This document shows positions 2,506-54,020 of a stretch of DNA of 64,000 nt, piece by piece. The stretch covers positions 928-64,927 of the forward strand of contig JASMCJ010000008.1 in assembly GCA_030753365.1 (NCBI GenBank), in the 5' to 3' direction. Below the pieces are notes generated by a model. It was given only the letters and a program-made list of their open reading frames with translations. It made no database searches and was not told where the DNA came from. Position 1 is the first letter of the stretch, and every line of letters starts with the position of its first letter. Position numbers and translations under genes: made by a program. This DNA comes from Candidatus Woesearchaeota archaeon. GTDB taxonomy: Archaea; Nanobdellota; Nanobdellia; Woesearchaeales; GCA-2687795.

Positions 2506-4257
2506 CTAAGAGTAATACAGTTTCCCAGCACTTTTCTGCTCTCTGTCTTTGACGGAGTTGATTTTATTGATTCTTGGGCGATGGCTTGTGCCGTCTCTTC
2601 TTAGAGTGAGATTGAGCAGGGTTAGGAGGGAGTTCATGCCTTGTTCCATGGAGAAGGGGCCTTTGACCAGGCCATGTTTTGCTGGGGTTCCTTCAAATAC
2701 TAATAGTCTGTCTGATAAGTAGTCTAAGAATAATAAGTCATGGTCTACTATGATTGCTGAGATGTTTCTTTGCTCTATGATGTGTTTTATTACTTTGGAT
2801 ACTTTTAGCCTTTGTTCTACGTCAAGGTAGGCTGAGGGCTCGTCTAATAGGACAAGGTTGCAGTCTTTTGATAATGATAGGGCGATGGCTACCCTTTGGA
2901 GTTCTCCTCCTGAGAGCTGGTTGATTTGCTTTGTTAGTAAAGGCTTTATGGTTAGAGGGACTATGATTTCATTGTCATATTTCTTTATGGCATCTTTCAT
3001 GATGTTCATGACTAACTCGTTAGAGGTTGAGTCTATGTATTGAGGCTTGTAGGAGACTTTGACTTTTGTGTCAGGGCTGCCTTTGTCTGGCTTTATGACT
3101 CCTGCAAGGAGCTTGACAAAGGTGGTTTTTCCTATACCGTTTTCTCCTAGCACGCCTACTGCTTCGCCTTTGCTGACTTCGCCTGGCTCTGCTATGAGAT
3201 TGAAGTTTCCTAACTTCTTTTCCATGCTTTTCCAGCTGGTTAAAGGGTTTCGCTTTTTTTCTTTTTCTTTGGCTTTGATTTCAAATTCAATTTTTGAGTT
3301 ACGGAATCTTATGTTGTCTTCTTTTAGGAAGCCTTCAAGGTATGCGTTTATGCCGTTTTTTGTTGTTCTTGGAAGAGAGACTATTCCATAGCAGTCTTCT
3401 TTTCCGTACATGATATGGATTAGGTCTGTCATGTAGTCTAGTGCTATGAGATCGTGCTCTATTATCATGACTGAGGTGTTTTCGTCTGCTAGCACTCTTA
3501 TGAATCTTGAAACATTGAGCCTTTGCTTTATGTCAAGGTATGATGTGATTTCGTCAAAGATGTATACGTCAGCCTTTTTTAAGACTGTGGCTGCTATAGC
3601 AACTCTTTGCAATTCTCCACCGGATATGCTTTCTATTTTGCTGTTGAGTATTGGCGTTATGTCTAGCTGCTGGGCTGTTTCTTCTAGTTTGTTTTTTTCG
3701 TCTACTTTCTTTAATAGTTCTTTTACAGTGCCTTTGAATGTTTGAGGGATTAGGTCTACCTGTTGGGGCTTGTAAGAGATTTTGATGTTTTTGTCTCTTA
3801 CTTTTTCAAAGAAGGATTGGGCTTCTGTGCCTTTGAAGTATTCAATTAGCTCTTTGTGGGTTGCTGCTTTTCCTTTTTCCCCAAGGTTTGGCTTGAGCAT
3901 GCCTGCAAGGATTTTGATGGCTGTGGATTTTCCTATGCCGTTTACTCCCAGTATGCCTACTACTTTGCCGAATACTGGTATTGGAAGGCTGTAGAGTGAG
4001 AAACCGTTTACGCCGTAACGGTGGATTGGCTTTTGTTTTAGTTCTTCTGGGAGGTTTATGATTGAGATTGCTTCTATGGGGCATTTGACGCAGATGTTGC
4101 AGCCTATGCAGAGAGATTCATCTATTATTACCTTGTTGTCTGTGCCCATGGTTATGCATTCTTTGCCTGTTCTGTTTACTGGGCAGGCTTTTATGCAGAA
4201 CTTGCCAGAGCTTTCTGGCTTGCATTTCTCTTTACGGACTATTGCGATTCTTGCCAT
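2506..4257 (-). CDS. abcE1: ABCE1 / RNase L inhibitor-type ribosome recycling ATPase (twin-NBD ABC protein with N-terminal 4Fe-4S domain)
   Basis: N-terminal Cys clusters (CKPESSGKFCIKACP and CIGCNICVKCP). Two Walker A sites (GVNGIGKST, GENGIGKTT) and two LSGGELQRVAIA signatures. Length 583 aa. Confidence 0.9.
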   Translation of the reverse strand: MARIAIVRKEKCKPESSGKFCIKACPVNRTGKECITMGTDNKVIIDESLCIGCNICVKCPIEAISIINLPEELKQKPIHRYGVNGFSLYSLPIPVFGKVVGILGVNGIGKSTAIKILAGMLKPNLGEKGKAATHKELIEYFKGTEAQSFFEKVRDKNIKISYKPQQVDLIPQTFKGTVKELLKKVDEKNKLEETAQQLDITPILNSKIESISGGELQRVAIAATVLKKADVYIFDEITSYLDIKQRLNVSRFIRVLADENTSVMIIEHDLIALDYMTDLIHIMYGKEDCYGIVSLPRTTKNGINAYLEGFLKEDNIRFRNSKIEFEIKAKEKEKKRNPLTSWKSMEKKLGNFNLIAEPGEVSKGEAVGVLGENGIGKTTFVKLLAGVIKPDKGSPDTKVKVSYKPQYIDSTSNELVMNIMKDAIKKYDNEIIVPLTIKPLLTKQINQLSGGELQRVAIALSLSKDCNLVLLDEPSAYLDVEQRLKVSKVIKHIIEQRNISAIIVDHDLLFLDYLSDRLLVFEGTPAKHGLVKGPFSMEQGMNSLLTLLNLTLRRDGTSHRPRINKINSVKDREQKSAGKLYYS

Positions 4258-4293: not shown

Positions 4294-5235
4294 TTAAGCA
4301 AAGAACATGATTTTCATAAAGAGGTATGAAAGGTAGAATAAAATAAGGGTTACTGCTTCAGGCTTGCCAAGTTTCATTTTCTTTTTGAAGAAGAAGATTA
4401 GGAGTAATGAGACAAAGAACCAGAATGGGATGTCAAAGAAGGTGATTACTTTGTCTACAGTGTAACCTGAGACCATTGCACCTATGCCTAATGCAAATAA
4501 AGGGTTGGTTATGTTTGAACCTATTAGTGTGCCTAATGACATGCCTGTGGAACCTTTTAGGATTGCTCGTATGGCAACTGTGAGTTCAGGCAGCGCAGTG
4601 ATTAATCCAATTATTATGCTTCCTATAAAAGAGTCTCTTACTCCCCAAAGAGCTGCTAATGTGTCTGCGTTTGTTACAACGACTTTTGCAGAATATAATA
4701 GCAGCGCTAAGCCTATGCATGTTAAGATAGAGTGCTTTAGTATGTTATCCTTAGACTTATGATGATTTCTGAATATTTTTTCGCCTTTTGTTAGGTAGAT
4801 TAGGTAGCCAATGTAAATAAAGGTTAGGATGAAGCCTTCAGTTCTTGATATTTTACCATCTAAGCACATTACAAAAAGAAGGATGATGCCAGAGAGCATT
4901 ACTATGGAGTCTATATTAAGTATTTTCTTATGGGATTTTACAAGAACCATTAGACCTATTAAGCCCATGATAAAGGTTATCTGGATTATGTTGGAGCCAA
5001 TGTTTGTGCCTATTGCTATGTTGCTTGTATCAATTCCCTTTAAGACGTCCATGCTGACTACAAGATGGGTAAAGATTTCTGGAAGAGAAGTGGCGATGGA
5101 GAGAACTGTGAGACCTATGAAGGCTTCTGTCATGTTGATGGCTTTTGCAATTTTCTGGAGGTTTATGACTGCTATGCCTGCACTTATCCAGATGCCTATT
5201 AGGCCTAACATAAGATATAATATCTGAAGGTCCAT
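4294..5235 (-). CDS. Na+/Ca2+ exchanger family (CaCA, YrbG-like) membrane protein
   Basis: Polytopic, with two alpha-repeat-like motifs (ATSLPEIFTH and ITALPELTVAI) typical of CaCA antiporters. Confidence 0.75.
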   Translation of the reverse strand: MDLQILYLMLGLIGIWISAGIAVINLQKIAKAINMTEAFIGLTVLSIATSLPEIFTHLVVSMDVLKGIDTSNIAIGTNIGSNIIQITFIMGLIGLMVLVKSHKKILNIDSIVMLSGIILLFVMCLDGKISRTEGFILTFIYIGYLIYLTKGEKIFRNHHKSKDNILKHSILTCIGLALLLYSAKVVVTNADTLAALWGVRDSFIGSIIIGLITALPELTVAIRAILKGSTGMSLGTLIGSNITNPLFALGIGAMVSGYTVDKVITFFDIPFWFFVSLLLIFFFKKKMKLGKPEAVTLILFYLSYLFMKIMFFA

Positions 5236-5282
5236 AGAGTATTGTTTTTAGGATAGAATGTATATAAAGATTGTTATTTAAT

Positions 5283-5322
5283 AAAAATCCCAATCACAGC
5301 AAGCTGTGAGGTACGAAAAAAC
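5283..5322. terminator. Terminator-like hairpin module HP1: A-tract, CCCAATCACAG-CAAG-CTGTGAGG stem-loop, then a second small hairpin AAAAACC-TTT-GGTTTTT. Member of the dispersed hairpin family.
   Basis: Stem CACAG/CTGTG with CAAG tetraloop, flanked by AAAAATCCC. Same architecture as the copies at 10715, 13601, 31921 and 53415, with compensatory stem changes. Confidence 0.45.
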
Positions 5323-5351
5323 CTTTGGTTTTTGGTATCCCTCTGGAATAT

Positions 5352-5492
5352 TGTCAAAAGTCCGTGACCACCACCAGTCAATAGACTGGTGGCATGCTCG
5401 CCCACTCAAGTGGGCTCGGGTCACTCCCTCTTGAGCACATTTTATTCCACTTTGAACCACCAGTCTAGACTGGTGGAATAAAATGTTTTAAA
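5352..5492 (+). repeat. Structured repeat core, copy 1 (~141 nt) with nested perfect palindromes; near-identical to 18823..18962
   Basis: Contains CCACCAGTC-AATA-GACTGGTGG, GCCCAC-TCAA-GTGGGC and the perfect 20 nt palindrome CCACCAGTCTAGACTGGTGG. The outer pairs GTGACC/GGTCAC and CATTTTATTCCAC/GTGGAATAAAATG compete with the inner palindrome. Matches 18823..18962 with about 3 mismatches. Confidence 0.7.
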
Positions 5493-5507
5493 CTTCATAT
5501 TTTAATC

Positions 5508-5540
5508 CAACCGTTGCAAGCAACGGGGTATTAAACCCAT
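5508..5540. other. Hairpin module HP2 (CCAACCGTTG-CAAG-CAACGGGG then TATTAAACCC), enclosed by inverted repeat ACTTCAT/ATGAAGT
   Basis: Stem CGTTG/CAACG with CAAG tetraloop followed by GGGGTATTAAACCC. Homologous to GCCGATG-CAAG-CATCGGGGTATAAAACCC in the 99 nt repeat unit. Confidence 0.4.
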
Positions 5541-5579
5541 GAAGTAATAAAAAGATTTATATAATTAATAAATTGATGA

Positions 5580-6425
5580 ATGGTTATGATTGATATTAGC
5601 GCGCTTAATATAAAACCTGAAATACTTATTAAGATAATCAGGGTTGCTGTAATGCTTGTTATTCTTGAGGTATTGTATCAGATTATTACAAAGAGTATTA
5701 AGAAAGTTTTGCTTAATAAGATTAAGAGCAAAAGACAAAGATCTAATGTTATTGTATTCTTTAATATATTAAGATATTTGTTTATATTCCTGATAATACT
5801 TATACTGATATTTACTTATACTGGCTCATGGACAGGGTTAGGGATTTCAGCAGGATTGTTGACTGCTGCATTGGGTTGGGCATTGCAAAGGCCAATTACA
5901 GGCATTGCTGCATGGATTATGGTTGTTACGAAGAAACCATTTAGTATTGGAGATAGGATTATTATTGGCTCTGTTAAGGGAGATGTGTCTGATATAACAT
6001 TGACGCATATTTATCTGAAAGAGATTGGTGGGACTGTTGGAGGAGAGGAGAGTTCAGGAAGGATAATATTGGTGCCTAATTCTGTGCTTTTTGAGCAGAA
6101 TATTGTTAATTATACGATGCAGGATGAGTTTATATTGAGCGAGGTTAGGACACTTGTGACTTATGAGTCTAATCTTGATGAGGCTGTTAAAATATGTAAG
6201 GAAGCTGCGGGAAAGGTTACAAGGGATGTTTTAAATGAAGTTCCAGAGAAACCTGTTGTAAGGACGTTTTTTAAGGATTCAGGGATTGTTGTTAAGGTGA
6301 GATTTTTTACAAAGACTGATGATAAAATAAAGGCGGAGAGTGATATTACACAAGCTATATTTGAGATGGTGAAAGAGTCTAAGAATGTTGATATTGCTTA
6401 TCCGCATATACAAATAGTTAAGTAA
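5580..6425 (+). CDS. mscS: Small-conductance mechanosensitive channel (MscS family)
   Basis: Three N-terminal TM helices followed by the MscS beta-domain region (GDRIIIGSVKGDVSDITLTHIYLKE..ILVPNS). Confidence 0.8.
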   Translation: MVMIDISALNIKPEILIKIIRVAVMLVILEVLYQIITKSIKKVLLNKIKSKRQRSNVIVFFNILRYLFIFLIILILIFTYTGSWTGLGISAGLLTAALGWALQRPITGIAAWIMVVTKKPFSIGDRIIIGSVKGDVSDITLTHIYLKEIGGTVGGEESSGRIILVPNSVLFEQNIVNYTMQDEFILSEVRTLVTYESNLDEAVKICKEAAGKVTRDVLNEVPEKPVVRTFFKDSGIVVKVRFFTKTDDKIKAESDITQAIFEMVKESKNVDIAYPHIQIVK

Positions 6426-9130: not shown

Positions 9131-10042
9131 TTAGAAGTCTAACTCGTCGAAATGACCTAAATTATAGGCTTTACGGAAGGCTAAGATGACTGCCTTTATT
9201 TTAGTTTCATCATATTTAGGTCTTAACTTCTTAACTATTTTATACATAATTTCGTCTTTTTTCATAATCCTGTTTATCAGTTTCATTCTTTCAGTGATAT
9301 CTTCTCCTTTAGGTAATGATTCATCTGCCATCTCGGTAAGTGTAAGAAATATATCCTCCCCGAGTTTTCTGTATCTGCGCCTTGATTCATCTGGATGCAT
9401 TTGTTGAGCTATTTCTCTGACAAATTTCTCTTCGTCGCTTTCCAGCTCTTCTTTTACCTCTTCTTCAAGGAGAATAGCTCTTGCAATTTTCATTATGCTT
9501 GTGTGTATATGCTTATTTTCTCCAAAGAAGGATTGTTCTCTAAAAACCCTATAAAGTTCTGGTTCGCTACGAAAGATAAGTTCAAAAAGCTTAAGCAAAA
9601 GGGCTTTTGAAGGTTTTTTTCTGATCAAGTGTATTAAATGCAGTTCCGCTTTGAGAACATTAAAGATTTCGTGAAAGAGTTTTAGAAGCGTTGACTGTTT
9701 TTGTTTGACTGATAAAATTGTTTTAGATAATTTTTCAAGCTCATTCGTACTTTTTAATTGTTCCAAGTCTGCTAGAATCTCTTCATCTGTTTTTTCCTCA
9801 TTAGCAATATTAATTAACTCTGGAGAAATTAAGGATTCAAGTTCTCTCAATATTTTATCCGTAGCTTTGAAATCCTGCAAGGCATTGTCAACGTTTTTAA
9901 AATTGAAATGTTTAGATAAGTTTTCTCTTAGCTTAGAATTAGCTATGTGTTTATTCCATAAAGCCATTCGCTTATTATCATCCATGACTAACTCTTTTAC
10001 AGTGCTCTTTTTACTTCCAAAAAGATGATTTAATAAGCTCAT
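9131..10042 (-). CDS. Hypothetical alpha-helical protein
   Basis: 303 aa, Glu/Lys/Leu-rich helical composition, no recognizable catalytic motif. Confidence 0.35.
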   Translation of the reverse strand: MSLLNHLFGSKKSTVKELVMDDNKRMALWNKHIANSKLRENLSKHFNFKNVDNALQDFKATDKILRELESLISPELINIANEEKTDEEILADLEQLKSTNELEKLSKTILSVKQKQSTLLKLFHEIFNVLKAELHLIHLIRKKPSKALLLKLFELIFRSEPELYRVFREQSFFGENKHIHTSIMKIARAILLEEEVKEELESDEEKFVREIAQQMHPDESRRRYRKLGEDIFLTLTEMADESLPKGEDITERMKLINRIMKKDEIMYKIVKKLRPKYDETKIKAVILAFRKAYNLGHFDELDF

Positions 10043-10552: not shown

Positions 10553-10714
10553 GGTTAAAAGGTGTTCAATTGAGAATTATCCCTTAGGTGTACTTTTCCA
10601 AAGATATGCTCCTATACCTGCAAAAACAAGTCCAACTATTATACTGATTATTTGACTCTTAGTATCAATTAAACTTGGTAGAAGAATTGGACCAATTATA
10701 CCTACAAGAAAAAT

Positions 10715-10813
10715 AAAAAATCCCAATCGCAGCAAGCTGCGGGGTATTTTTAGTATTTAGTTTGCGTATTAAGCCGATGCAAGCATCGGGGTATAAAACC
10801 CAAACTAAATAAT
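10715..10813. repeat. 99 nt structured repeat unit (HP1-spacer-HP2), 100% identical to 31921..32018
   Basis: Sequence ATAAAAAATCCCAATCGCAG-CAAG-CTGCGGGGTATTTTTAG ... TATTTAGTTTG CGTATTAA GCCGATG-CAAG-CATCGGGGTATAAAACCC CAAACTAAATA. HP1 is followed by a T-run. HP2 is enclosed by the 11 bp inverted repeat TATTTAGTTTG/CAAACTAAATA. Confidence 0.7.
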
Positions 10814-11167
10814 CAATAAAAATAATGAATGGTTATCAGACTTTATATCACAAGATAACAAAAAAACTGATAGAGATAAAGTTATTCATTTTACTATTCT
10901 GAATCTAGGAAATTTAAATGTAAATAAAAGAGAAGGAAAAATAAGAATCATTCTAAATTTAAAAAACAAAGATCTTGTTTTAAATAAATATATGAAAAAG
11001 AAACTTGAAAATTTGAAATTGTTTCTTAATAATTCCATCAATATACTTCTTGACTCTTAATGGAAATAGGAGCTTGCGTCATATTGTCGCTCCGTTTCAC
11101 TCCGTGACTTTTCCTTGCAGAAAAAAACATATAACAACCACTTTTAAAAGGAAATCAATAGAAGAAC

Positions 11168-12583: not shown

Positions 12584-12810
12584 TTTAGGTATTCTAAATT
12601 TAAAACTGTTCTTGTTATTAAAACTTTCTTTGGAATGTAGTAAAAATAAGGATTAGAATAATAATATTTATATAACTGCAATAGTATTAAACAAGACATG
12701 GTTGATAAAAAGGAAGTGGAACGGATATTTCTAAAATTAAGGAAGATATAGCTAAAGAACTTAAGAAAGGAGCTTATAAGGCTGAGGATATAAAGAAGCA
12801 GAGAGCGCCT

Positions 12811-13596
12811 GTGTCTAAGATTATTAAGAAGGCTAAGTCTGCACCAAAGAGGATGAATAGCAATTTTATTAAAACAGGGATTCATGGCCTGGATGGTTTG
12901 ATGGATAAGGGGATTCCAAAAGGGACTGCTAATCTTGTTTGCGGTGGTCCAGGCTCTGGCAAGACTATATTGGGATTGCAGACTTTAAATTATGCTGCAA
13001 GCAAGGGGCAAAAATGCATTTATATGACTTTTGAGGAGTCTGAGGATAGGTTAAGAAAGCATATGAGGGATTTTGGATGGAGCCCTGAAAAGCTTGAGAA
13101 GAAAGGTTTATTGGTTATAAAGAGATATGACCCTTTTGCTGTTACAAGACAGGTGGAAGCTTTGCTGGAGAAGGCTAAGGGAGAATTGCTTATTGATGTT
13201 AACCCAATTTTGTTTCCTAAGGGATTTAAGCCTGACAGAGTGGTTGTTGACAGCTTGTCTGCTATTTCTGCGGCGTTTGTTGGCAAGGAAGAGACTTACA
13301 GGATATATATTGAGCAGTTGTTCAGGCTGCTTGAAAATATTGGAGCTACTTCTTTTTTGATTACTGAGTCTACTGATATTCCTACTAAGCTTACAGAGTC
13401 TGGTGTTGAAGAGTTCCTGGCAGATGGTGTTATTATTGTGTATAATGTGCAGAGAGGGAATACAAGGGAGTCTGCTATTGAAATTTTGAAGCTGAGAGGA
13501 GCTTCGTTTCAGAAGAAAATTGTTGCAATGCAGATACAAGGAAAGAAAGGTATTGTTGTTTATCCTGAGCATGAAGTTTTTGGAGGAATTCAGTAA
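12811..13596 (+). CDS. KaiC-like / RadA-paralog RecA-superfamily ATPase. GTG start at 12811; an ATG at 12853 is an alternative.
   Basis: GIHGLDGLMDKGIPKG..CGGPGSGKT Walker A and a KaiC-like single-domain layout, 261 aa. Confidence 0.65.
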   Translation: MSKIIKKAKSAPKRMNSNFIKTGIHGLDGLMDKGIPKGTANLVCGGPGSGKTILGLQTLNYAASKGQKCIYMTFEESEDRLRKHMRDFGWSPEKLEKKGLLVIKRYDPFAVTRQVEALLEKAKGELLIDVNPILFPKGFKPDRVVVDSLSAISAAFVGKEETYRIYIEQLFRLLENIGATSFLITESTDIPTKLTESGVEEFLADGVIIVYNVQRGNTRESAIEILKLRGASFQKKIVAMQIQGKKGIVVYPEHEVFGGIQ

Positions 13597-13600
13597 AGCG

Positions 13601-13652
13601 GAAAATCCTAAAAATCGCTATCCCCACAGCAAGCTGTGAGGTATTGAACCCA
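13601..13652. terminator. Bidirectional terminator-like hairpin (family member) at a convergent gene junction
   Basis: AAAATCCTAAAAATCGCTATCCCCACAG-CAAG-CTGTGAGGTATTGAACCC; stem CACAG/CTGTG. Lies between the 3' ends of the KaiC-like gene (+) and a membrane protein gene (-). Confidence 0.45.
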
Positions 13653-13665
13653 AGTTGTAATAATT

Positions 13666-14268
13666 CTAGATATGGTATTCAAATCTTATAATAGGCTTTA
13701 TGTTTTTGATGTTGTACCATATTAAGAATATAATCACACTTGTCATTGTGCCTAGTACAAGGGCTGTTAAGGAGAAGTTTAGGACATAAGGCATGATTTC
13801 TTTTTTACCAGAAGCAAGAAGGAACATGGTGAAGGGTATTGAGGCTGCTGATAGGCCTGCTCCCAGTATGACTGATAAAGGTATGTTTTTGAATTCTATG
13901 GTGAACAGTAGAGAGATTAGTTCAAAGACGAGCCCTGCTGCTGTTAGTATGATGACTTTGTTCCAGCCAAGGCCGCCAAAGTTGCTTATGTCAGAAGTGG
14001 CTAAGGCTCCTAAGAAGCTGAATATTAGTATGGCCCCGGGCCTGTTGATGAGTAAGGCTATGAATGCCATGAATGCGATTGTTAGTGCTAAGGATAACAT
14101 GAAGGTTAATGTGGTGTCTGACAGGCTGATGAAGTAGGTGAGAGTGGACCATAACAAGACTAGGATGATGACCGCTAATAGGTCAATCTTCCTTAAGCGC
14201 TTGAAGTTAGGGAATAACTGCTTGCTCTTTTTAGAGGTTTCTGGCTTGGTTTCTTTTTTCTTTTTCAT
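13666..14268 (-). CDS. Polytopic membrane protein (hypothetical); last gene of the MinD-containing operon
   Basis: 200 aa, Lys-rich N-terminal tail then 5-6 TM helices. Confidence 0.4.
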   Translation of the reverse strand: MKKKKETKPETSKKSKQLFPNFKRLRKIDLLAVIILVLLWSTLTYFISLSDTTLTFMLSLALTIAFMAFIALLINRPGAILIFSFLGALATSDISNFGGLGWNKVIILTAAGLVFELISLLFTIEFKNIPLSVILGAGLSAASIPFTMFLLASGKKEIMPYVLNFSLTALVLGTMTSVIIFLIWYNIKNIKPIIRFEYHI

Positions 14269-14272
14269 GGTA

Positions 14273-15349
14273 TTAAATGAGCCTCTTTAACTTTGAAAGT
14301 TTGTGAAGCCTTGCCTGAATTACAGGCAGTTTGTGTTTTATTTGCATTAAGCCTTCTTTGTATTTGTCTACTTTGACATCATAGGTGTGTTTTGGGAGGA
14401 TGCCTTTAGAGTAATAGTCAGACTGGGCTTTTACCATTAAATCTTCCAAAACTTTTTTCTCAATGGTGGTTTCTTTCACTTTGTCTTTTAGCAGTTTGAC
14501 CATGAACCTGTTATAGAATATGAAGGTTATAATGGATAAGATTATGATTAAAGCTATGAGCCATTTGTAGTATTGTTTTATAAAACTGAAGGTGGTTTCT
14601 GTGCCTGCTTTGTAGATTGCTTTTAGTACTGTGTTTTCTGCTTTGATTTTGCTTATTAAAGGACCTATTTCTGCAAGCAATGATTCTGCTTCTTCGTATC
14701 TTTCATCTTTAAATTCGGTTTCTGCTTCTGAGAAGATGCTATAAAGAGGGGAAACGTTTAATCTTAATTCTTCTATTTCTTTTATTCTCATTTCTGAGAC
14801 TTTGAAATTGTCTCTTAGTTCGTATGCTCGGAGTTTTCTTTCGTTTATTGACTGAGTTTTTTCTAGAACGGTTTTGTAGTCCACTGGGATGCCTATCTTT
14901 TCCTGAGCTTCTGCTAGTAGAATTCTTGCTTTTTCTCTTTTCTCAGTGTTGTTTATTGTTTCTATTTGTTCTAATAGAGAAGTGTAATCTTCCCCTTTAA
15001 AGTAGCTTTTGGCTTCTATTAGGGTGTCGTTTACCCAGGTTATGCTGAAGCCTTGTTCCTGCATTTCCTGCATGTCTGACTCTGCCTGAAGAATGGCGTT
15101 GAAGGCTAGTTCCTGACTGATGTTTTCAAGAGTGAGAGTATCATAATCTATTGCAGAAGGCTTGTCTTCAAAGATTCTTAGGTCTGAGATTATGTTGCCT
15201 GTTATTGAGGCAGAAGGGATTTGTATTTGGGCTATGTTTGCTGATAAAAATGTTAGTAGAACTATACATAATGCTAATATGCTAAAGCATATTGTGTACA
15301 TTTCAGCTTCCTGTTCTATGTCCAAAGTTTTCTTTTTTCTTTTAGTCAT
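14273..15349 (-). CDS. Bitopic coiled-coil protein (N-terminal signal-anchor, long extracytoplasmic coiled-coil, C-terminal TM plus cytoplasmic tail)
   Basis: 358 aa. Hydrophobic segments at aa ~18-38 and ~268-290 with heptad-rich Glu/Lys sequence between. Its start overlaps the MinD stop. Confidence 0.45.
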   Translation of the reverse strand: MTKRKKKTLDIEQEAEMYTICFSILALCIVLLTFLSANIAQIQIPSASITGNIISDLRIFEDKPSAIDYDTLTLENISQELAFNAILQAESDMQEMQEQGFSITWVNDTLIEAKSYFKGEDYTSLLEQIETINNTEKREKARILLAEAQEKIGIPVDYKTVLEKTQSINERKLRAYELRDNFKVSEMRIKEIEELRLNVSPLYSIFSEAETEFKDERYEEAESLLAEIGPLISKIKAENTVLKAIYKAGTETTFSFIKQYYKWLIALIIILSIITFIFYNRFMVKLLKDKVKETTIEKKVLEDLMVKAQSDYYSKGILPKHTYDVKVDKYKEGLMQIKHKLPVIQARLHKLSKLKRLI

Positions 15350-18822: not shown

Positions 18823-18962
18823 TGTCAAAAGTCCGTGACCACCACCAGTCAATAGACTGGTAGCATGCTCGCCCACTCAAGTGGGCTCGGGTCACTCCCT
18901 CTTGAGCACATTTTATTCCACTTTGAACCACCAATCTAGACTGGTGGAATAAAATGTTTTAA
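18823..18962 (+). repeat. Structured repeat core, copy 2 (near-identical to 5352..5492). Its 3' end supplies the last 8 codons and the stop of the DHH gene on the opposite strand.
   Basis: Same ~140 nt as copy 1, with G to A (GACTGGTAGC) and G to A (CCACCAATCTAGA) changes that break two palindromes. Overlaps 18936..18962 of CDS 18936..20024. Confidence 0.7.
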
Positions 18963-31843: not shown

Positions 31844-31920
31844 TTTTTGCCTCCTTGAATTCGTTTGTTTTTAGTGTATTATATTATATGTGGTTATAAT
31901 AACCTTTTGATTATAATAAT

Positions 31921-32018
31921 AAAAAATCCCAATCGCAGCAAGCTGCGGGGTATTTTTAGTATTTAGTTTGCGTATTAAGCCGATGCAAGCATCGGGGTAT
32001 AAAACCCAAACTAAATAA
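31921..32018. repeat. 99 nt structured repeat unit, identical to 10715..10813; serves as the terminator region of the pentapeptide gene
   Basis: 100% identity to copy at 10715. On the minus strand the HP1 hairpin is followed by ATTTTTT immediately 3' of the stop at 32019. Confidence 0.7.
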
Positions 32019-32684
32019 TTAATATCCTGCCTGATAATAATTGCTTGGTCCTAGCCCATTATTACCCAAGAGAGGTCTTAAAGGATCAAATCCTCCGTAA
32101 AACATATATCCTTTTGGTTTTCTGCTATTTTCCTTTGTTGGAATTCCAAAGTAATTTATATTTACAGCATAAAGATTAGCGCTTCCTGTTATATTTGCCT
32201 GTCCAATATTTTGAACTTTGTACATGTTAGAACCTGAAAGATTTGTTTGCGATAAATAAGATCCGCCAAGATTTGAATATGCAAGGTTCGAGTTAGATAA
32301 ATTAGCTCCTCTAAAATCAGAGTTGCTTAAATTAACTCCACTAAAATCAACGCCTGACAGGTTTTTATTCCTGAAATTTGCTCCTTTTAACTCAACCTTT
32401 TCTTCTCTTCTCCTTGAAATGAAGTTGTTCCACAATTCCTTGTTCTCTGTTATGAATGAAACTAAACTCTCTATATCTCCTTCATTAATAAGGCTGATAA
32501 GCTCAACCAATGACTGCTTTTCTGGAATATCATTAAAGTTTTTATTTTGTGCGGTACCTTCCTCAAAATAAACCTCTGAAGTTTCATTATTCTTCTGGTC
32601 TGTTCGTTTCTTCTTCAATTTCACATTTGCAAGAGCCATCTTTACAACCACATACTTTACAGACTTTTTTACCTGCAAAATCAA
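32019..32684 (-). CDS. Pentapeptide-repeat protein (start possibly at the internal Met at ~32639)
   Basis: Tandem A(D/N)LSxx pentapeptide repeats (GANFRNKNLSGVDFSGVNLSNSDFRGANLSNSNLAYSNL). Confidence 0.65.
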   Translation of the reverse strand: MILQVKKSVKYVVVKMALANVKLKKKRTDQKNNETSEVYFEEGTAQNKNFNDIPEKQSLVELISLINEGDIESLVSFITENKELWNNFISRRREEKVELKGANFRNKNLSGVDFSGVNLSNSDFRGANLSNSNLAYSNLGGSYLSQTNLSGSNMYKVQNIGQANITGSANLYAVNINYFGIPTKENSRKPKGYMFYGGFDPLRPLLGNNGLGPSNYYQAGY

Positions 32685-33284: not shown

Positions 33285-33449
33285 TTTACCTTTTATACCA
33301 ATATTAATGGTTTATTCTTCTTATTTGTTTGAAATAGATAGTGAATATTATAATCCATACTTCCATTTAAATCTTTGTTTTAATTTAAGGAAAAAGAAAG
33401 ACAGCTCTGGGAAAAAAGGAGGGAAAACCCAGGGCTGCTTATAGTTAAA

Positions 33450-33610
33450 TGTCAAGAACCACCCATCACAGATGGGTGGCATGAAGGATTTACGCCTAGA
33501 GCCATCCCATTTTTCTTGGTGGTTCTTGAGCATGCTCAGAAATATAACACCTTCCAAAACTGGATTGTGGACTTCGTCCACTGGTTATAAAACCAGTGGT
33601 ATATTTCTGA
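33450..33610 (+). repeat. Diverged third member of the structured repeat family (hairpins preserved by compensatory substitutions)
   Basis: Hairpin CCACCCATC-ACA-GATGGGTGG (copy 1 has CCACCAGTC-AATA-GACTGGTGG). Shared GGTGGCATG and CTTGAGCA blocks. Hairpin CCACTGGTT-ATAAAA-AACCAGTGG (copy 1 has CCACCAGTCTAGACTGGTGG). Outer stem CAAGAACCACC/GGTGGTTCTTG. Confidence 0.55.
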
Positions 33611-42410: not shown

Positions 42411-42827
42411 ATGCAGTATGTACCAAAAGAAGAGAATAAGGAAGAGGTTTTAAAAGAGCACCAACATAGAGAGGATAATTTAAGGCTGGATAAAGAAAAG
42501 GCTGCTAAGAAAAAAAAAGGAGTGATTATTATTGCTCTGGTATTCTTTTCAGTCATTGCTGCTGTGGTTACCTATGGATTGCTTTCACCTGGAAGGTATG
42601 ATAACTTTGCAAAGTGCCTTACAGAGAAAGGTGCTGTTATGTATGGAGAGGATTGGTGCCAGTATACAAACGCGCAAAAGAATATGTTTGGAAAGTCTTT
42701 CAAATATATTCATTATGAAGTAAATGAGAATCTTAATAAAAGACCTACATGGGTTATTAATGGGAAGAGTTATGAGACTGTGCAGTCTTTTGAAAGATTG
42801 GCTTCATTAACAGGATGTGAAATTTGA
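42411..42827 (+). CDS. Membrane-anchored thioredoxin-fold protein with monothiol CxxT motif (paralog of 45406..45774)
   Basis: YDNFAKCLTEKGAVMYGEDWCQYTNAQKNMFG aligns with YDSFAQCLTEKGVKMYGGYWCPHCANQKDMFG of the downstream paralog. The active site reads WCQYT here and WCPHC there. Confidence 0.5.
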   Translation: MQYVPKEENKEEVLKEHQHREDNLRLDKEKAAKKKKGVIIIALVFFSVIAAVVTYGLLSPGRYDNFAKCLTEKGAVMYGEDWCQYTNAQKNMFGKSFKYIHYEVNENLNKRPTWVINGKSYETVQSFERLASLTGCEI

Positions 42828-43178: not shown

Positions 43179-44423
43179 ATGGAAGAACATCATGAGCATA
43201 AAGAACACCATAAACAAAGTCACCACCATGAATCTGAAGAGCATCATGAACATAGAAAACATCATAAAACTCATCATAAGAAGAGGAGAGTTCCAAATAG
43301 ATCGTTTTATAATAGAATGTATATAACTTTAGGAGTAGTTTTGATTCTATTTATGTTATATAACCTTTCACAGACATTGTCTATTAATATTACACTTGAT
43401 CAAAAGATTGCTAATGTAAAAGAGGCTGCAAAGCCTGCTGAGATTAGTTTAACAGTGATTTCTACAAGCTCATGTAAAGATTGTTATGATATTAATTCAG
43501 CTGTGGAAGTTATTGAGTCAATTGGTGTGAGTGTGACAAGCAAAGAGATTGATTTTTCTTCTGAAGAGGCTAAAGCGCTTATTGCAGAGCATACTATTGA
43601 GAAGGTTCCTACAGTAATCGTGACTGGAGAGATTGATAAGTCTTCTTCATTGAAAAGGACTCTTGGAGAGATAGGAAAAGAGAGCGGTGATGCATATGTG
43701 TTTACCAGTTTAGAACCACCGTTTATTGAAACTAAGACTGGAATGGTTAGAGGGAAGATATCATTGGTGCATCTTAAGAAAGAGAGTTGCGATGATTGCA
43801 TTGATTTAGCTCCGTTAATAAGCCAGTTAAGCGCATCAGGATTAATCCTTGAAGAGAGCGAAGAGATAGATGTTGATAGCACAAAAGGGAAGGAATTAGT
43901 GAAGAAGTATAGTGTTGAAAAGATTCCTACAATTATAATGGATAAGGAAGCTGAGGTTTATCCTAATATTGTACAGAGCTGGAGCCAGCTTGGAAGTGTT
44001 GAAGGAGATGGATCATATGTTATGAGGGAGGTTAGTTCTCCTTATTATAGCATTGAAGAAGAGGCTATTAAGGGATTAATTTCTATGATAATATTAAGTG
44101 ATGAAACTTGTGAGGAATGTTATGATGGAGGAGAATTTCACAGCCCTGTTTTACAAAGGATGGGAATCACATTCAAAGAAGAGGATGAGTTAGATGTTTC
44201 CAGTGAAGAAGGGAAGGAATTGGTGGAGAAATATAGTATAAATCTTGTTCCTACTATAATAATTACAGGAGATATTGAGGAATATCCTGTGTTAGTAAGC
44301 GCATGGGTAGAAGTTGGAACTGAAGAGTCTGATGGAAACTATGTGTTTAGAAAGGTTGAGATTGCTAACCAACCTTATAAGAATCTGACTGATGGAAAGG
44401 TTGTTGGAAGTAGAACAGAATAA
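43179..44423 (+). CDS. His-rich N-terminal tail, one TM, then three tandem thioredoxin/glutaredoxin-fold modules each carrying CxxC (protein-disulfide-oxidoreductase-like)
   Basis: N-terminus MEEHHEHKEHHKQSHHHESEEHHEHRKHHKTHHKK. Three ~100 aa repeats with SCKDCYD, SCDDCID and TCEECYD, each followed by a VPT(V/I)I(V/M) beta-strand motif. Confidence 0.55.
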   Translation: MEEHHEHKEHHKQSHHHESEEHHEHRKHHKTHHKKRRVPNRSFYNRMYITLGVVLILFMLYNLSQTLSINITLDQKIANVKEAAKPAEISLTVISTSSCKDCYDINSAVEVIESIGVSVTSKEIDFSSEEAKALIAEHTIEKVPTVIVTGEIDKSSSLKRTLGEIGKESGDAYVFTSLEPPFIETKTGMVRGKISLVHLKKESCDDCIDLAPLISQLSASGLILEESEEIDVDSTKGKELVKKYSVEKIPTIIMDKEAEVYPNIVQSWSQLGSVEGDGSYVMREVSSPYYSIEEEAIKGLISMIILSDETCEECYDGGEFHSPVLQRMGITFKEEDELDVSSEEGKELVEKYSINLVPTIIITGDIEEYPVLVSAWVEVGTEESDGNYVFRKVEIANQPYKNLTDGKVVGSRTE

Positions 44424-45409: not shown

Positions 45410-45774
45410 GATGGTTAAAGATGAATATTAAACAAATATTAGGAATTGTTTTGATTTGTTCAGTCTTGGTTATGGTTGGATGCTCAAGCATTAATTATGA
45501 TAGTTTTGCACAATGCCTTACAGAGAAAGGTGTTAAGATGTATGGGGGATATTGGTGTCCGCATTGCGCTAACCAAAAGGATATGTTTGGAAATTCTTTT
45601 GGTTATGTGAATTATATTGAATGTTCGCTTCCTAATAGAGAAGGAAAAACAGAAATATGTATAGAAGAGGATATAAAAGTTTATCCTACATGGGAGTTTG
45701 CAGACGGAAGCAGGAAAGAAAGAGTACATTCATTGGAACAATTGAGCGCGTTTAGCGGATGTAGCATAGAATAA
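45406..45774 (+). CDS. Membrane-anchored/secreted thioredoxin-like protein (WCPHC active site)
   Basis: 122 aa; N-terminal hydrophobic anchor, WCPHC, thioredoxin-fold spacing. Confidence 0.7.
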   Translation: MRWLKMNIKQILGIVLICSVLVMVGCSSINYDSFAQCLTEKGVKMYGGYWCPHCANQKDMFGNSFGYVNYIECSLPNREGKTEICIEEDIKVYPTWEFADGSRKERVHSLEQLSAFSGCSIE

Positions 45775-52391: not shown

Positions 52392-53417
52392 TTGGAAAAA
52401 GATATATTTTTAAAATACGCTAGGTTTACAAATCTTAAGATGAAAAAGTATGATGTTTATGCAATTGGTAATGCATTGATGGATGTTTATACTAAAGTGG
52501 AGAATGAGAAATTAGTAGAGATTAATCTAAAGAAAGGGGATATGCATCTTGTTGATGAGGAACAGTCAAAAAGGTTTTTTGAAGGTGTTAAAGATAATAT
52601 ATTAAAGACTGGGCCTGGTGGCTCTTCTGTGAATGTTGCTGCTGGTGTTGCTATGTTAGGTGGTAGTGTAGCGTTCTGCGGGGTTGTAGGAAATGATGAA
52701 CAAGGTAGAATGTTTGAGGATATCCTTGTTAAAGAGGGAGTTATTGCTAACCTTGCTAAGAGCAGCAAGATGACTGGGAATGTTATTTCGTTTATTACAG
52801 ACGATAGTGAGAGGACATTTGCAACTCATCTGGGGGCGGCTCTCGAGCTGAAGAAGGAAGATGTTAGTGAAGAGGATATTATCGCAAGTAAGGTTCTTCA
52901 TATAGAGGCATATCAATTGGAGGATCCTAAGCTTAAAGAGGTTTGTTTTCATGCAATGGATGTTGCTAAGAGTAATGGTGTTAAAGTTTCTATTGATTTG
53001 AGCGACCCTGCATTGATTATGAGGAATCTTGAAGAGTTTAAGAAGGTTGTTAAGGATTATGCAGATATTGTTTTTGCTAATGAGGAAGAGGCTAAGGCGT
53101 TTACTGGTTTAGAGCCTGAAGAGGCATTGCATAAGATTGCTGAGGATGCTGAGGATGCTGTTGTTAAGTTGGGGAGCAAAGGTTCTATTATTAAGAATGG
53201 AGAAGATGTTTTTAAGATTGAGGCTGTTGAAGCTAATGCTATTGATACTACTGGGGCAGGTGATAGTTTTGCTGCAGGGTTCCTTTATGGATTTTGCAAT
53301 GAGTTGGGGATAGAAAAGTCAGGGAAGCTTGGCTCTTTTCTTGGAAGCAAGGTTGTGGAAGAGATTGGCACAAGGATTGAACAAGATGTTAAAGAGGAGA
53401 TTGAGCAATTAAAATAA
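52392..53417 (+). CDS. PfkB-family carbohydrate/nucleoside kinase (ribokinase superfamily)
   Basis: N-terminal GG motif region and C-terminal DTTGAGDSFAAGFLYG anion-hole motif. Confidence 0.75.
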   Translation: MEKDIFLKYARFTNLKMKKYDVYAIGNALMDVYTKVENEKLVEINLKKGDMHLVDEEQSKRFFEGVKDNILKTGPGGSSVNVAAGVAMLGGSVAFCGVVGNDEQGRMFEDILVKEGVIANLAKSSKMTGNVISFITDDSERTFATHLGAALELKKEDVSEEDIIASKVLHIEAYQLEDPKLKEVCFHAMDVAKSNGVKVSIDLSDPALIMRNLEEFKKVVKDYADIVFANEEEAKAFTGLEPEEALHKIAEDAEDAVVKLGSKGSIIKNGEDVFKIEAVEANAIDTTGAGDSFAAGFLYGFCNELGIEKSGKLGSFLGSKVVEEIGTRIEQDVKEEIEQLK

Positions 53418-53452
53418 AAATCCCAACCATCCAAAAGGATGGGGTATTTTTA
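53415..53452. terminator. Terminator-like hairpin (family member) immediately after the PfkB kinase stop
   Basis: AAAATAAAAATCCCAACCATCC-AAAA-GGATGGGGTATTTTTAGT; stem CCATCC/GGATGG then T-run. Shares the GGGGTATTTTTAGT tail with the 99 nt unit. Confidence 0.5.
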
Positions 53453-53519
53453 GTGTTCCAAATACCCTAAATAACTTGTATTGATAATATGAACACAACC
53501 ACCACAAGCGAAGGAGTAT

Positions 53520-54020
53520 TTGAAACAAATGAAACCTGAAGAGATTTATGAAAAACTGGAAAAGAGTTCTGAATTTAAAGAATGGAAAAAAGATAATAAG
53601 GGCTGTTTCTTGTCATATATGTTTAAGGTTACTCCTGGTGATGAAGATTGGCAGGTTGGATTTTATGATAAGGGAAAGGATAGCATTACAACTTTTAAGT
53701 TTGTGAATGATAAAGTAGAAATTATAGAGGATCAGAAAGTGTTTAAGAAGGAAGAGAGCAATGTCAATAAGTTAGAGCTTAATGATGTGAAGGTTGAGCT
53801 TGAAGAGGCTTTGAAAACTGCTAATAAAGTTAGGTCAGAGAAGTATAAAGTGGATTATTCTAAGATTATTGTACTTTTGCAGAGGCTTGATGTTGGGCAG
53901 ATATGGAATATTACGTATATTACTAATACATTGTCAACGTTGAATATTAAGCTTAGTTGTGACTCTGGGGATGTGTTGAGCGAAGAGCTTATCCCTTTGA
54001 CTAATTATAAGGGTGGTTGA
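53520..54020 (+). CDS. Hypothetical protein
   Basis: 166 aa, no motif recognized. Confidence 0.35.
   Translation: MKQMKPEEIYEKLEKSSEFKEWKKDNKGCFLSYMFKVTPGDEDWQVGFYDKGKDSITTFKFVNDKVEIIEDQKVFKKEESNVNKLELNDVKVELEEALKTANKVRSEKYKVDYSKIIVLLQRLDVGQIWNITYITNTLSTLNIKLSCDSGDVLSEELIPLTNYKGG

Follow-up and report, generated by a model that had tools for sequence, protein, structure and literature searches.

A two-hairpin intergenic module of DPANN archaea, probably a two-way transcription stop or RNA-end hairpin copied in the manner of bacterial REP elements

Modular structured repeats occur in small bacterial genomes, among them the BOX and RUP elements of pneumococci, the Correia elements of Neisseria and the RPE of Rickettsia. 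At malE–malF, REP sequences have proposed roles in termination and in protecting mRNA 3′ ends. Haloarchaea carry PATEs, which are non-autonomous elements derived from IS200/IS605, and Nanoarchaeota are reported to have integron cassettes in arrays. DPANN archaea have tiny, dense genomes; we know of no cultured genetic systems for them, and to our knowledge their transcription signals and non-coding DNA are almost wholly uncharted. REPs favour convergent and unidirectional spacers, the same bias that we describe below for an archaeal element, and roles in termination and mRNA 3′-end protection have been proposed for them (PMC3733652); RAYT subclasses have been reported only in bacteria (PMC6006769). 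Archaeal attC sites have been reported (PMC9668308), and archaeal termination at U4–7 tracts is established, with mapped terminators that lack hairpins (PMC8716108). A full-text literature search found no description of the element analysed here.

The window, by which we mean the whole 64-kb stretch of DNA under analysis, comes from an archaeon, as eIF-1A, RadA, GatD and S6e show. The original prediction of an exact 99-nt repeat starting at 10715 and 31921 held, and the identity extends to 102/102 nt between positions 10712–10813 (copy A) and 31918–32019 (copy B; repeat family D3). It breaks off precisely at each end, beyond which the two copies have unrelated flanks. Further relatives lie at 5280–5550, 13603–13657 and 53414–53532, all on the + strand (Table 1). 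The motif is above chance: the flank pattern AAAATCCC-N10–30-GGGGTATTTT matches three times in the window against 0.00 expected in 100 shuffles, and GGGGTATNNAACCCA matches four times against 0.62 expected. Copy A folds with z scores of −5.3 (+ strand) and −5.6 (− strand) relative to dinucleotide shuffles. In its first hairpin (HP1), the A-run (10715–10720) pairs with the T-run (10747–10751) and CCC pairs with GGG; its second hairpin, HP2, is CCGATG-CAAG-CATCGG at 10774–10789. Copy A occupies a convergent spacer between a cytidine deaminase gene (+, ending at 10552) and gatB (−, ending at 11168). The right end of copy B abuts the stop codon of a pentapeptide-repeat gene (−, 32019–32684), and its left end lies 75 nt from the start of a glutaredoxin gene (−, 31843). 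Copy B is present in all strain contigs that have the glutaredoxin gene, two of which (L139 and L140) terminate inside it.

The relatives predicted at 5283 and 53415 are real, the latter with both flanks present. The former (U1) sits between divergent genes (4294–5235, −; 5580–6425, +) and keeps its 5′ flank; its 3′ flank reads GAGGTA, after which an insertion of 172 nt displaces the T-run. The insertion comprises a small hairpin module (5314–5351) and most of a structured 140-nt repeat, D2 (5352–5491), which extends 6 nt beyond the insertion and recurs at 18823–18962 with 99% identity. Domain 2 of U1 consists of TTTTAA, an outer stem CTTCAT/ATGAAG, an HP2 reading CCGTTG-CAAG-CAACGG and then GGGGTATTAAACCCA. 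The relative predicted at 13601 (U3) does contain an HP2-type hairpin, GCTATCCC-CACAG-CAAG-CTGTG-AGGTATTGAACCCA, but is merely a degenerate remnant that has neither A-run nor T-run on the + strand; T5 follows on the − strand. U3 fills the 69-nt spacer between convergent genes ending at 13596 and 13666. In U5, HP1 has a CCATCC/GGATGG stem and an AAAA loop, and the outer stem GTTCCAAATAC/GTATTTGAAAC surrounds a degenerate HP2. This unit spans an entire spacer between co-directional genes, as some other units do: the stop codon TAA of a PfkB gene (53415–53417) falls within its ATAAAAAT start, and the following gene takes its ATG (53529) from the ACAAATGA end of the unit, which leaves no space for a separate promoter.

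Table 1 Positions of the module units and their parts in the window (CM, covariance model)
Feature	Position	Strand	Evidence or description
Unit copy A, type V1, 102 nt	10712..10813	+	CM R1, 104 bits, E = 7e-20
Copy A, domain 1 (HP1)	10715..10751	+	A6-T-CCC-AAT-[CGCAG-CAAG-CTGCG]-GGG-GTA-T5
Copy A, domain 2	10754..10811	+	Outer stem TATTTAGTTTG/CAAACTAAATA around HP2, then tag GGGGTAT..ACCCA (MFE fold)
Unit copy B, type V1	31918..32019	+	102/102 identical to copy A; A-run 31921–31926, T-run 31953–31957
U1, HP1 half, CACAG/CTGTG stem	5280..5313	+	CM partial match, 5288–5313
Insertion splitting U1 directly after GAGGTA, 172 nt	5314..5485	+	Missing from the L112 orthologue
U1, domain 2	5486..5550	+	CM match 5478–5555, 43.8 bits; fold
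U3, degenerate remnant, HP2/V3-type hairpin	13603..13657	+	CM only 16 bits, E = 0.46
U5, type V2	53414..53532	+	CM 46 bits, E = 2e-7; fold z = −3.6

The 99-nt repeat belongs to a family of two-domain units about 105 nt long. HP1 reads, in order, A-run, CCCAA, variable GC hairpin, GGGGTAT and T-run; it has a 5–6-bp GC stem with a CCC/GGG clamp, followed by GTA and T5–6, and the − strand mirrors this layout with T6–7. Domain 2 consists of an 11-bp outer stem enclosing HP2, then GGGGTAT..ACCCA and a terminal mAATCA. The unit is larger than the proposed ~40-nt hairpin: a second long covarying stem encloses HP2, which makes it a two-domain module of ~105 nt. Each unit carries a strand-specific signature, a hairpin followed by GGGGTAT, twice in direct orientation, and in V2 units both hairpins read ACCCAA-hairpin-GGGGTAT. 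Extra cargo separates HP1 from domain 2 in U1, L109 and L110; no HP1...HP2 pair brackets an open reading frame.

The structure of the module is under selection. The base-pair-preserving stem changes that had been predicted were confirmed both in HP1 (CGCAG/CTGCG, CACAG/CTGTG and CCATCC/GGATGG) and in HP2 (CGATG/CATCG versus CGTTG/CAACG). Among 79 distinct units, 95.3% of 2415 cells are paired, compared with 73.4% in shuffles and 38–51% in slid-partner controls. Double changes occur at 28 of the 34 pairs, and none of 500 shuffles reaches any of five covariation measures. Model helices 1 and 2, which make up HP1, are 99.6% and 96.3% paired, with double changes at five of six inner pairs; all 11 outer-stem pairs covary, with 4–6 pair types each, as do six of the seven HP2 pairs. 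Bulged bases are conserved, and expansion hairpins of differing length occur. One variant, at L008:3075, retains the outer pairing, its T-run having been replaced. G–U and A–C counts (11 versus 8 in HP1 and 17 versus 35 in the outer stem) reveal no G–U strand bias; both strands pair equally, which fits a two-way hairpin or one formed at the DNA level.

Covariation of this strength and expansion hairpins of variable length are as in real structured RNAs, and the unit could be read, on the − strand, as a gene for a small non-coding RNA or as the 3′ domain of such a gene. The outer stem and HP2 would then come first, the HP1 complement plus U6 would be the terminator, and the paralogues would act in trans. 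The − strand does end in a hairpin and U6, and its shape has a sub-threshold likeness to attenuator leaders (Phe_leader, 32 bits; gathering score, 55). Against an RNA gene, stop and start codons of coding genes adjoin units or fall within them, no promoter-like element is conserved at a fixed distance, neither strand has an excess of G–U pairs, and orientation relative to neighbouring genes in tandem contexts is mixed (17 versus 12). Nor did Rfam 15 provide a family: the whole window gave no match at the gathering threshold, and the units and the insertion gave nothing meaningful at E ≤ 10. We therefore regard an RNA gene as very doubtful. For the conserved bulges, K-turn, C/D, H/ACA, T-loop and BHB motifs were rejected by eye, as the required GA or box motifs are absent.

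The unit is present in at least 46 species-representative metagenome-assembled genomes (MAGs) of Woese-, Pace- and Nanoarchaeota (class Nanoarchaeia) with GC contents of 30–57%; the loci themselves range from 34% to 57% GC. The covariance model gave 82 matches at E ≤ 1e-3 in the pattern-scan loci L007–L106 and 6 clear matches (E ≤ 1.5e-8) among 32 further loci. Units were collected with an exact-match pattern, which makes the HP1 flanks look more conserved than they are; outside that pattern, the ATAAAA lead-in and TTTT(T)AA tail are found in all archaeal matches and in no bacterial chance match. The A-run/hairpin/T-run layout of HP1 is retained even at 54–57% GC. Unit density is five in the 64-kb window and about one per 8–10 kb in other loci. 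No unit was found in ~70 kb from closer GatB relatives (L113, L115, L117, L118 and L121); the module is therefore dispensable. A viral origin was rejected, as none of five IMG/VR pattern matches was confirmed by the covariance model. Several unit-bearing MAGs carry the record label Methanosarcinales.

Units are biased towards gene ends. The spacers of 57 units were convergent in 19 cases, tandem in 29 and divergent in 9, compared with 10.4, 33 and 13.5 expected; with crude gene calls, this is an approximately twofold convergent enrichment, with divergent spacers depleted (p = 0.011 by count and 0.002 by length). The original observation that most copies sit at gene 3′ ends is supported as a bias; 9 of the 57 units lie between divergent genes. 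A stop codon lies inside or abuts the start of the unit in 8 of 35 cases. In L083, an intron-containing tRNA gene is duplicated, and a unit begins 4 nt past either copy; ARAGORN found no tRNA adjoining units in 60 loci, and the association is confined to the L083 duplicates. Neighbouring units of the window are separated by 5–21 kb, in a setting of genes such as gatB, hisS, radA and S6e that lie on both strands.

This placement, together with the A-run/hairpin/T-run layout, had suggested a bidirectional intrinsic terminator. The layout is kept, but the term cannot be assumed in its bacterial sense, because the host is archaeal and mapped archaeal terminators are hairpin-less (PMC8716108), and the window makes no general use of hairpins with T-runs. 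Such sites number 19/21/12 against 14.1/15.1/11.0 expected, and the only A-run/hairpin/T-run sites in the 64 kb are the three intact HP1s. A T5+ run lies within 80 nt 3′ of the stop codon in 24 of 61 window genes, and units occupy a minority of gene ends. The asymmetric tags CCCAA/GGGGTAT and domain 2 are not required for a terminator.

The unit also behaves as a repeat, as had been proposed: besides the identical window copies, one MAG (CAZQZJ01) has 11 near-identical exact-pattern copies with unrelated flanks, to which the covariance model adds one, giving 12 sampled, and assembly contigs break at units. A third flank for the copy A/B unit was seen at a contig end, and tandem and nested arrangements exist. 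Copies are near-identical within a genome, and between genomes their stems covary; in CAYITD01 loci, diverged copies with compensatory changes occur inside one genome. U1 has an intact orthologue in a relative (L112) that lacks the 172-nt insertion and whose flanks are ~91% identical. The orthologous unit has 2 substitutions in ~105 nt, compared with a flank difference of ~8.7%, and has thus evolved approximately fourfold more slowly (Poisson p ~0.006). No clean empty site was found: every strain contig is filled, a flank-to-flank BLAST among all loci gave no orthologous empty site and no informative cross-genome pair, and the absence of copy A from L112 does not provide one because the cdd–gatB spacer has been replaced by other DNA. 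A search for homologues of the pentapeptide-repeat gene returned no close relatives. Support for mobility of the unit is only indirect.

The main reading of the original prediction was that of bidirectional terminators encoded by the host alone, which stay at fixed sites and are inherited vertically, with identity reflecting strong selection or gene conversion rather than mobility. The terminator-like layout, the gene-end bias with units right after stop codons and a tRNA gene, the slow evolution of U1 at the same site in a relative that is ~9% diverged, and the failure to find either a transposase or a target-site duplication all accord with it. Harder to reconcile with fixed sites are the 102/102 identity, loops and unpaired spacers included, in unrelated contexts, the 12 near-identical copies in one MAG, the tandem and nested copies and the patchy distribution even among GatB relatives. 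Termination also leaves domain 2 and the asymmetric tags unaccounted for, units lie in divergent promoter regions, and there are no hairpin terminators elsewhere in the window. On balance, fixed terminators are unlikely.

Alternatively, the unit might be a selfish, non-autonomous single-strand transposon of the IS200/IS605 type, PATE-like or REPIN-like, in which HP1 and HP2 would be the left- and right-end hairpins for a Y1/HUH transposase acting in trans and the gene-end sites would be tolerated insertions. Like PATEs and the ends of IS608, units are small, multicopy and have subterminal hairpins of the same strand sense with conserved unpaired bases, here a similar pair that share one tag and point the same way, one at each end. 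The unit ends, AATAAAAAAT and ..AAATCA, are not inverted copies of each other, so units lack terminal inverted repeats; the 11 exact-pattern CAZQZJ01 copies are not flanked by a target-site duplication either, and in both respects units resemble PATEs and IS608 ends and differ from MITEs. Watson–Crick pairing with no G–U bias is expected of DNA hairpins, cargo separates HP1 from domain 2 in U1, L109 and L110, 9 of the 11 adjacent pairs that lie on one contig share an orientation, all five units of the window among them, and IS200-type TnpA is known in archaea (PMC6006769). On the other hand, no protein family occurs in more than three loci in an all-against-all clustering of 640 open reading frames within 2.5 kb of units, and a tblastn search of 1.15 Mb of loci with an approximate query found no IS608-like TnpA, which leaves ~80 units with no TnpA or recurrent protein beside them; unlike PATEs and IS608 ends, units have a gene-end bias, and no cognate TnpA or TnpB was found nearby or in sampled loci. 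Although all five window units lie on the + strand in a region of uniform positive GC skew, orientation is uncorrelated with the skew of 8-kb loci (22 versus 21). Tags and A/T runs conserved over 46 species at 30–57% GC go far beyond usual IS ends, and the constraint on the orthologous copy and the compensatory changes in diverged CAYITD01 copies likewise speak against a selfish transposon, which we consider improbable.

An integron recombination site of attC-like kind, formed by domain 2 or by the unit as a whole, is a further possibility; it draws on the location at gene 3′ ends, the length of ~60–110 nt, a structure that is conserved while its sequence varies, and some outer stems that read ..TTAAC...GTTAAG... 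Set against this, the R″/R′ boxes (RYYYAAC/GTTRRRY) are not conserved (the window arms are ATTTAGTTTG/CAAACTAAAT), the outer stem varies freely in sequence, HP1 has no attC counterpart, and the annotated window has no integrase. Unlike attC sites and Vibrio VCRs, units form no cassette arrays but are scattered at distances of 5–21 kb between housekeeping genes of either strand. An attC site is thus extremely unlikely, and we rejected this reading because the R boxes and the array structure fail and GTT/AAC is absent from the window units.

The closest likeness is to the REPs and BIMEs of Proteobacteria, which have RAYT transposases. Both these and the units are short, GC-stemmed imperfect palindromes with a conserved tag at the hairpin foot; in both, stems vary between species and are homogeneous within a genome, and both are extragenic, enriched in convergent and co-directional spacers, and clustered or composite. 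The two differ in that the units have an archaeal host and the tags CCCAA (5′) and GGGGTAT (3′) instead of GTAG/CGTC, and HP1 and HP2 are direct in every unit, whereas the palindromes of REPINs and BIMEs alternate or are inverted. Units also have conserved A-run/T-run flanks, a second long outer stem and no excess of G–T pairing, no RAYT was found with them in sampled loci, and their sequence is conserved across a class, whereas that of REPs is conserved across a genus. BOX, RUP, Correia and RPE elements are similar in being intergenic modules that combine like Lego, nest, form stable stem-loops and overlap gene ends, some with terminator or promoter activity. Those elements are genus-restricted and none is archaeal; Correia and RUP elements, unlike units, have terminal inverted repeats and target-site duplications, and RPE insert in frame into genes. 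With bacterial bidirectional terminators, units share the order A-tract, GC hairpin, T-tract, a hairpin plus U-run on both strands, and convergent junctions. Archaeal RNA polymerase, by contrast, stops at U-tracts and needs no hairpin to do so (PMC8716108), and ordinary terminators have no sequence conservation, 102-nt identity, second domain or divergent-promoter sites.

The module probably stops transcription from both sides or serves as a hairpin at RNA ends, and is probably copied like bacterial REP elements, a function and a mode of copying that we infer. More specifically, and with moderate confidence, we explain it as a REP/BIME-like duplicating intergenic module whose HP1 would be a bidirectional U-tract terminator or 3′-end hairpin. 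RNA polymerase arriving from either side would transcribe a stable hairpin and then a U5–7 tract, supplied by the T-run on the + strand and by the complement of the A-run on the − strand. Because U-tracts are a known archaeal termination signal, HP1 may halt or weaken transcription whichever way it runs, and the 3′ hairpin that it leaves may shield the upstream message; a two-way stop with such a hairpin would explain the sites at stop codons, in convergent spacers and after a tRNA gene. Most likely, domain 2 and the two tags, GGGGTAT and the bulged CCCAA, would offer a recognition surface to a putative protein, acting in trans, that would bind the single strand in its folded form, and this protein, or gene conversion, may copy the unit to new gene ends. 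Copying of this kind would account for near-identity within a genome, with drift and compensation of stems from one genome to the next.

Several observations weigh against the best explanation. These are the hairpin-less mapped archaeal terminators, the few gene ends occupied, the 9 of 57 units in divergent spacers, the L008:3075 variant with no T-run, the lack of promoter space at U5, and the lack of general hairpin and T-run use in the window. They further include the lack of a clean empty site, target-site duplication, recurrent neighbour protein or IS608-like TnpA in the loci searched, reports of RAYTs from bacteria only (PMC6006769), the absence of units from the ~70 kb of closer GatB relatives, and the bias towards conserved HP1 flanks that the exact-match pattern brings with it.

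A more far-reaching, tentative possibility is that the units are the cis-acting part of a system in archaea akin to REPIN–RAYT. A dedicated, vertically inherited protein would read the folded CCCAA/GGGGTAT hairpin on single-stranded DNA or RNA and maintain or copy the module class-wide, and the host would use the module as a hairpin-assisted bidirectional terminator. The invariant asymmetric tag predicts a specific binding protein, which could be sought by phylogenetic profiling. In practical terms, the unit marks predictable points at which metagenome assemblies break, and it could point to bins that may be mislabelled in their records. If the proposed function is correct, hairpin-assisted bidirectional termination would be a mode undocumented in archaea, and the module would be a testable candidate for how DPANN archaea end or insulate transcription. 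Since reports of RAYT/REP systems have so far concerned bacteria, it would also be the first archaeal candidate for a REP-like replicator.

The original prediction of an identical structured repeat about 21 kb apart proved correct: positions 10712–10813 and 31918–32019 (copies A and B; family D3 of our repeat search) are the same at 102 of 102 positions. Identity stops sharply at both edges, and the flanks are unrelated. The motif exceeds chance, as the flank pattern AAAATCCC-N10-30-GGGGTATTTT matched the window three times against 0.00 expected, and GGGGTATNNAACCCA matched four times against 0.62 expected. The 121-nt region holding copy A folds much more stably than its shuffles on both strands (z = -5.3 and -5.6). 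Searching the window with a covariance model revealed five units, all in the same orientation.

Units found in the window by the covariance model
Unit	Position	Strand	Score (bits)	Remark
Copy A	10713-10820	+	104	
Copy B	31919-32026	+	104	
U5	53413-53537	+	46	
U1	5288-5313 plus 5478-5555	+		single unit split by insertion
U3	13613-13699	+	16	weak remnant

Instead of a hairpin of about 40 nt, as first proposed, the unit is a module that spans about 105 nt and has two domains. The first, domain 1 (hairpin HP1), reads (A)ATAAAAAAT-CCC-AA(Y), then a GC stem of 5–6 bp with a CAAG, CAGAG or AAAA loop, then GGG-GTA-TTTTT(T)AA. With the A-run and T-run paired to each other, as are CCC and GGG, the conserved bases that stay unpaired are AA(Y) in the 5′ arm and G/TA in the 3′ arm. 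In domain 2, an outer stem (about 11 bp) is combined with a variable spacer and a second hairpin, HP2, with the same loop types as HP1; 3′ of HP2 comes the GGGGTAT tag, as in HP1, then 2–4 nt and the ACCC that starts the 3′ arm of the outer stem, and the unit terminates in mAATCA. We found two architectures. In V1 (copies A, B and U1 in the window), the outer stem surrounds HP2 and the 3′ tag GGGGTAT is followed by ACCC; in V2 (U5), the outer stem is formed from ..GTTAnGAATACCC and GGGGTATTCnTAAC, and the ACCCAA-hairpin-GGGGTAT signature is complete at HP2. The two occur together in single genomes, such as that of the window, L010 and DASRUK01. Each unit therefore contains two instances, oriented alike, of a hairpin followed by GGGGTAT.

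Two loci (L061 and L008) hold tandem units, and some units carry extra hairpins directly after GGGGTA (U1, L109), between HP1 and domain 2 (L110) or within the HP2 loop (L050, L092, L061). A small hairpin module (GGTAC-hairpin-GTAYC) lies directly 3′ of the HP1 GGGGTA both in the window (5314-5351) and in an unrelated Woesearchaeota MAG (L109:7084-7243), suggesting that insertion or expansion recurs at this position. Another structured repeat family, D2 (about 140 nt; MFE -57 kcal/mol), has two window copies, 5352-5491 and 18823-18962, which are 99% identical, and neither is at the orthologous sites of the relatives L112 and L113. The D2 core reads TGTCAAGAACCACC-(covarying hairpin)-GGTGGCATG...GGTGGTTCTTGAGCA and precedes a second CCACCRGT hairpin; Rfam holds no match to D2. 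A diverged homologue lies at 33449-33605, with others at L018:6-104 and L055:5326-5451. Homologues are present in other DPANN MAGs, and contact with a unit is frequent: D2 sits within U1, follows the L055 unit at a distance of 20 nt, and borders the unit as half-copies in L011, L054 and L089. One possibility is that D2 is a small mobile element with the units as its target. The window also holds three tandem copies (23-430; period 165–198 nt) encoding a Cys/Asp-rich motif (..CDG.DNDCDG..) at the start of a 657-aa ORF (83-2056), and duplicated or paralogous coding segments of 73–79% identity (42597-42716 and 45496-45615; 43860-43939 and 44184-44263; 3085-3168 and 3886-3969) in a thioredoxin/DsbB-DsbD-like gene cluster and in the two ABC domains of an ABC ATPase gene (2506-4257).

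The base-pair-preserving stem changes originally noted in the window extend across the family. In 79 distinct units aligned to the model, standard pairs occupied 95.3% of cells compared with 73.4% in shuffles, 28 of 34 pairs had changed on both sides, and none of 500 shuffles reached any of five measures. Sliding the partner by 1–3 columns left pairing at only 38–51%, and all 11 outer-stem pairs covaried, with 4–6 pair types each. Although an alignment fitted to the model favours structure, the effect size and the raw sequences place the structure beyond doubt. Unit copies are near-identical within one genome and their stems differ by compensated changes between genomes; the CAYITD01 MAG holds diverged copies with compensated changes inside one genome. 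Wobble was rare and showed no strand preference (G-U versus A-C counts of 11 versus 8 in the HP1 stem and 17 versus 35 in the outer stem), and pairing is therefore Watson-Crick on both strands, as expected for a DNA hairpin or an element read both ways. This is not the pattern expected of a one-strand RNA gene, and we regard a small RNA gene as a distinctly unlikely explanation of the unit.

The host is an archaeon, as the window encodes eIF-1A, GatB, GatD, RadA and ribosomal protein S6e. When the exact pattern was run against a single genome for each GTDB species, at least 105 stretches matched; among those listed, about 80 are true units, all with ATAAAA in front, and none of the roughly 25 bacterial matches is a unit. 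Five viral matches, from IMG/VR, are not units either. The model gave at least 82 matches at E<=1e-3 among the pattern-scan loci (L007-L106) and 6 more clear matches (E<=1.5e-8) on further loci. Because an exact match to the HP1 flanks was the means of gathering units from other genomes, the conservation of those 19 bases reflects ascertainment and is no measurement; no such bias affects the lead-in, tail, HP2, HP2 tag and 3′ end. Units occur in at least 46 assemblies labelled Woesearchaeota, Pacearchaeota, Nanoarchaeota/Nanoarchaeia, 'archaeon' and, in some cases, Methanosarcinales. Many unit-bearing MAGs, L008, L011, L016, L019, L026, L029 and L034 among them, are labelled 'uncultured Methanosarcinales archaeon', yet have the element in common with Woese- and Nanoarchaeota MAGs; these labels may be wrong. 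Host-locus GC ranges from 34% to 57%, and the A- and T-runs are kept in GC-rich loci. About 70 kb from closer GatB relatives (L113, L115, L117, L118 and L121; 51–70% amino-acid identity) contained neither a unit nor any A-run/hairpin/T-run site. Thus the family, although very widespread, is patchy and dispensable.

Sequence identical to that of the window is also present in MAG GCA_030750115.1 and many metagenome assemblies, several contigs of which terminate within a unit; one contig start joins a third, different left flank to the sequence of copies A and B. These two copies are present in all strains of the window species. In L112, a relative (about 90% nucleotide identity, and about 91% in the flanks of U1), U1 occupies the orthologous position and lacks the 172-nt insertion present in the window (5314-5485). 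The L112 unit has 2 substitutions in ~105 nt, compared with about 8.7% difference in the 500-nt flanks, which indicates constraint (Poisson estimate, p ~0.006). L112 has no copy A, and as other DNA fills the spacer, this is not a clean empty site. L112 also lacks a 303-aa gene (9131-10042) and a 2.7-kb block (12585-15335) with a KaiC-like ATPase gene, the unit remnant U3 and two genes for membrane or coiled-coil proteins, and in its cdd-gatB spacer has ~1 kb of other DNA. We found no orthologous empty site among the loci compared, no target-site duplication around 11 exact-pattern copies of one MAG, no protein family recurring beside units and no IS608-like TnpA in 1.15 Mb of loci; a purely selfish single-strand element of the IS200/IS605 type seems improbable.

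On crude ORF-based gene calls, units occupy 19 convergent, 29 co-directional and 9 divergent spacers, against 10.4, 33.0 and 13.5 expected from the same loci (p = 0.011 by count, 0.002 by length), in line with the bias toward gene 3′ ends first noted. Co-directional spacers hold both unit orientations (17 versus 12). In 8 of 35 cases, the ATAAAA start contains or abuts the upstream stop codon. At the 3′ end, minus-strand genes commonly have their stop codon directly against the unit (for example, at copy B), and the first T5+ run past the adjacent stop codon on either strand is the run after HP1 or its complement. At L083 (reverse strand), a unit begins 4 nt after each of two tRNA gene copies. 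Both copies of this intron-containing type-II tRNA gene, located ~130 nt upstream of the units, were missed by ARAGORN, and a minimal A7-GGC-GCAA-GCC-T6 hairpin lies before one of them. U5 (53414-53532) supplies the stop TAA of a PfkB-family gene (53415-53417) and holds the ATG of the next gene (53529), so there is no separate spacer for a promoter. The window units, starting at 5280, 10712, 13603, 31918 and 53414, are all on the + strand with neighbouring genes on both strands and a uniformly positive GC skew; in multi-unit contigs, adjacent units share their orientation in 9 pairs and are opposed in 2 (binomial p ~0.03; L094, L008, L109 and L083 versus L064 and L010).

Archaeal termination is documented at U4-7 tracts and does not require a hairpin (PMC8716108). 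The proposed bidirectional intrinsic terminator fits the A-run/hairpin/T-run layout of HP1 and the convergent enrichment, but hairpin plus T-run sites are not generally enriched in the window, units are present at only 5 gene ends over its 64 kb, and 9 of 57 units lie in divergent spacers. Moreover, U5 wholly fills the spacer from PfkB to the next gene, ATG included, and the L008:3075 variant has GATTTGC/GCAAATC for the A- and T-runs, keeping the pairing while losing the T-run. Fixed host terminators without mobility are an unlikely account of the units.

The unit fits no Rfam family, and a full-text literature search found no description of it. Unlike REP, it has neither the GTAG/CGTC tag nor inverted pairing, and RAYT was not found in the sampled loci; the TIR and TSD of MITEs are missing, as are the R boxes and arrays of attC, and an attC-like site is very improbable indeed. 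The unit resembles REP, MITE and attC in its putative working and is a member of none. We see an even chance that it is REP/BIME-like, a structured, duplicating intergenic module in which HP1 is a putative two-way terminator, attenuator and 3′-end protector, and the tags and domain 2 are read by a putative protein. HP1 would give a stable hairpin followed by a U-tract in both directions of transcription and would act in all three roles, and the protein would recognize the invariant asymmetric tags and the second domain on the folded single strand.
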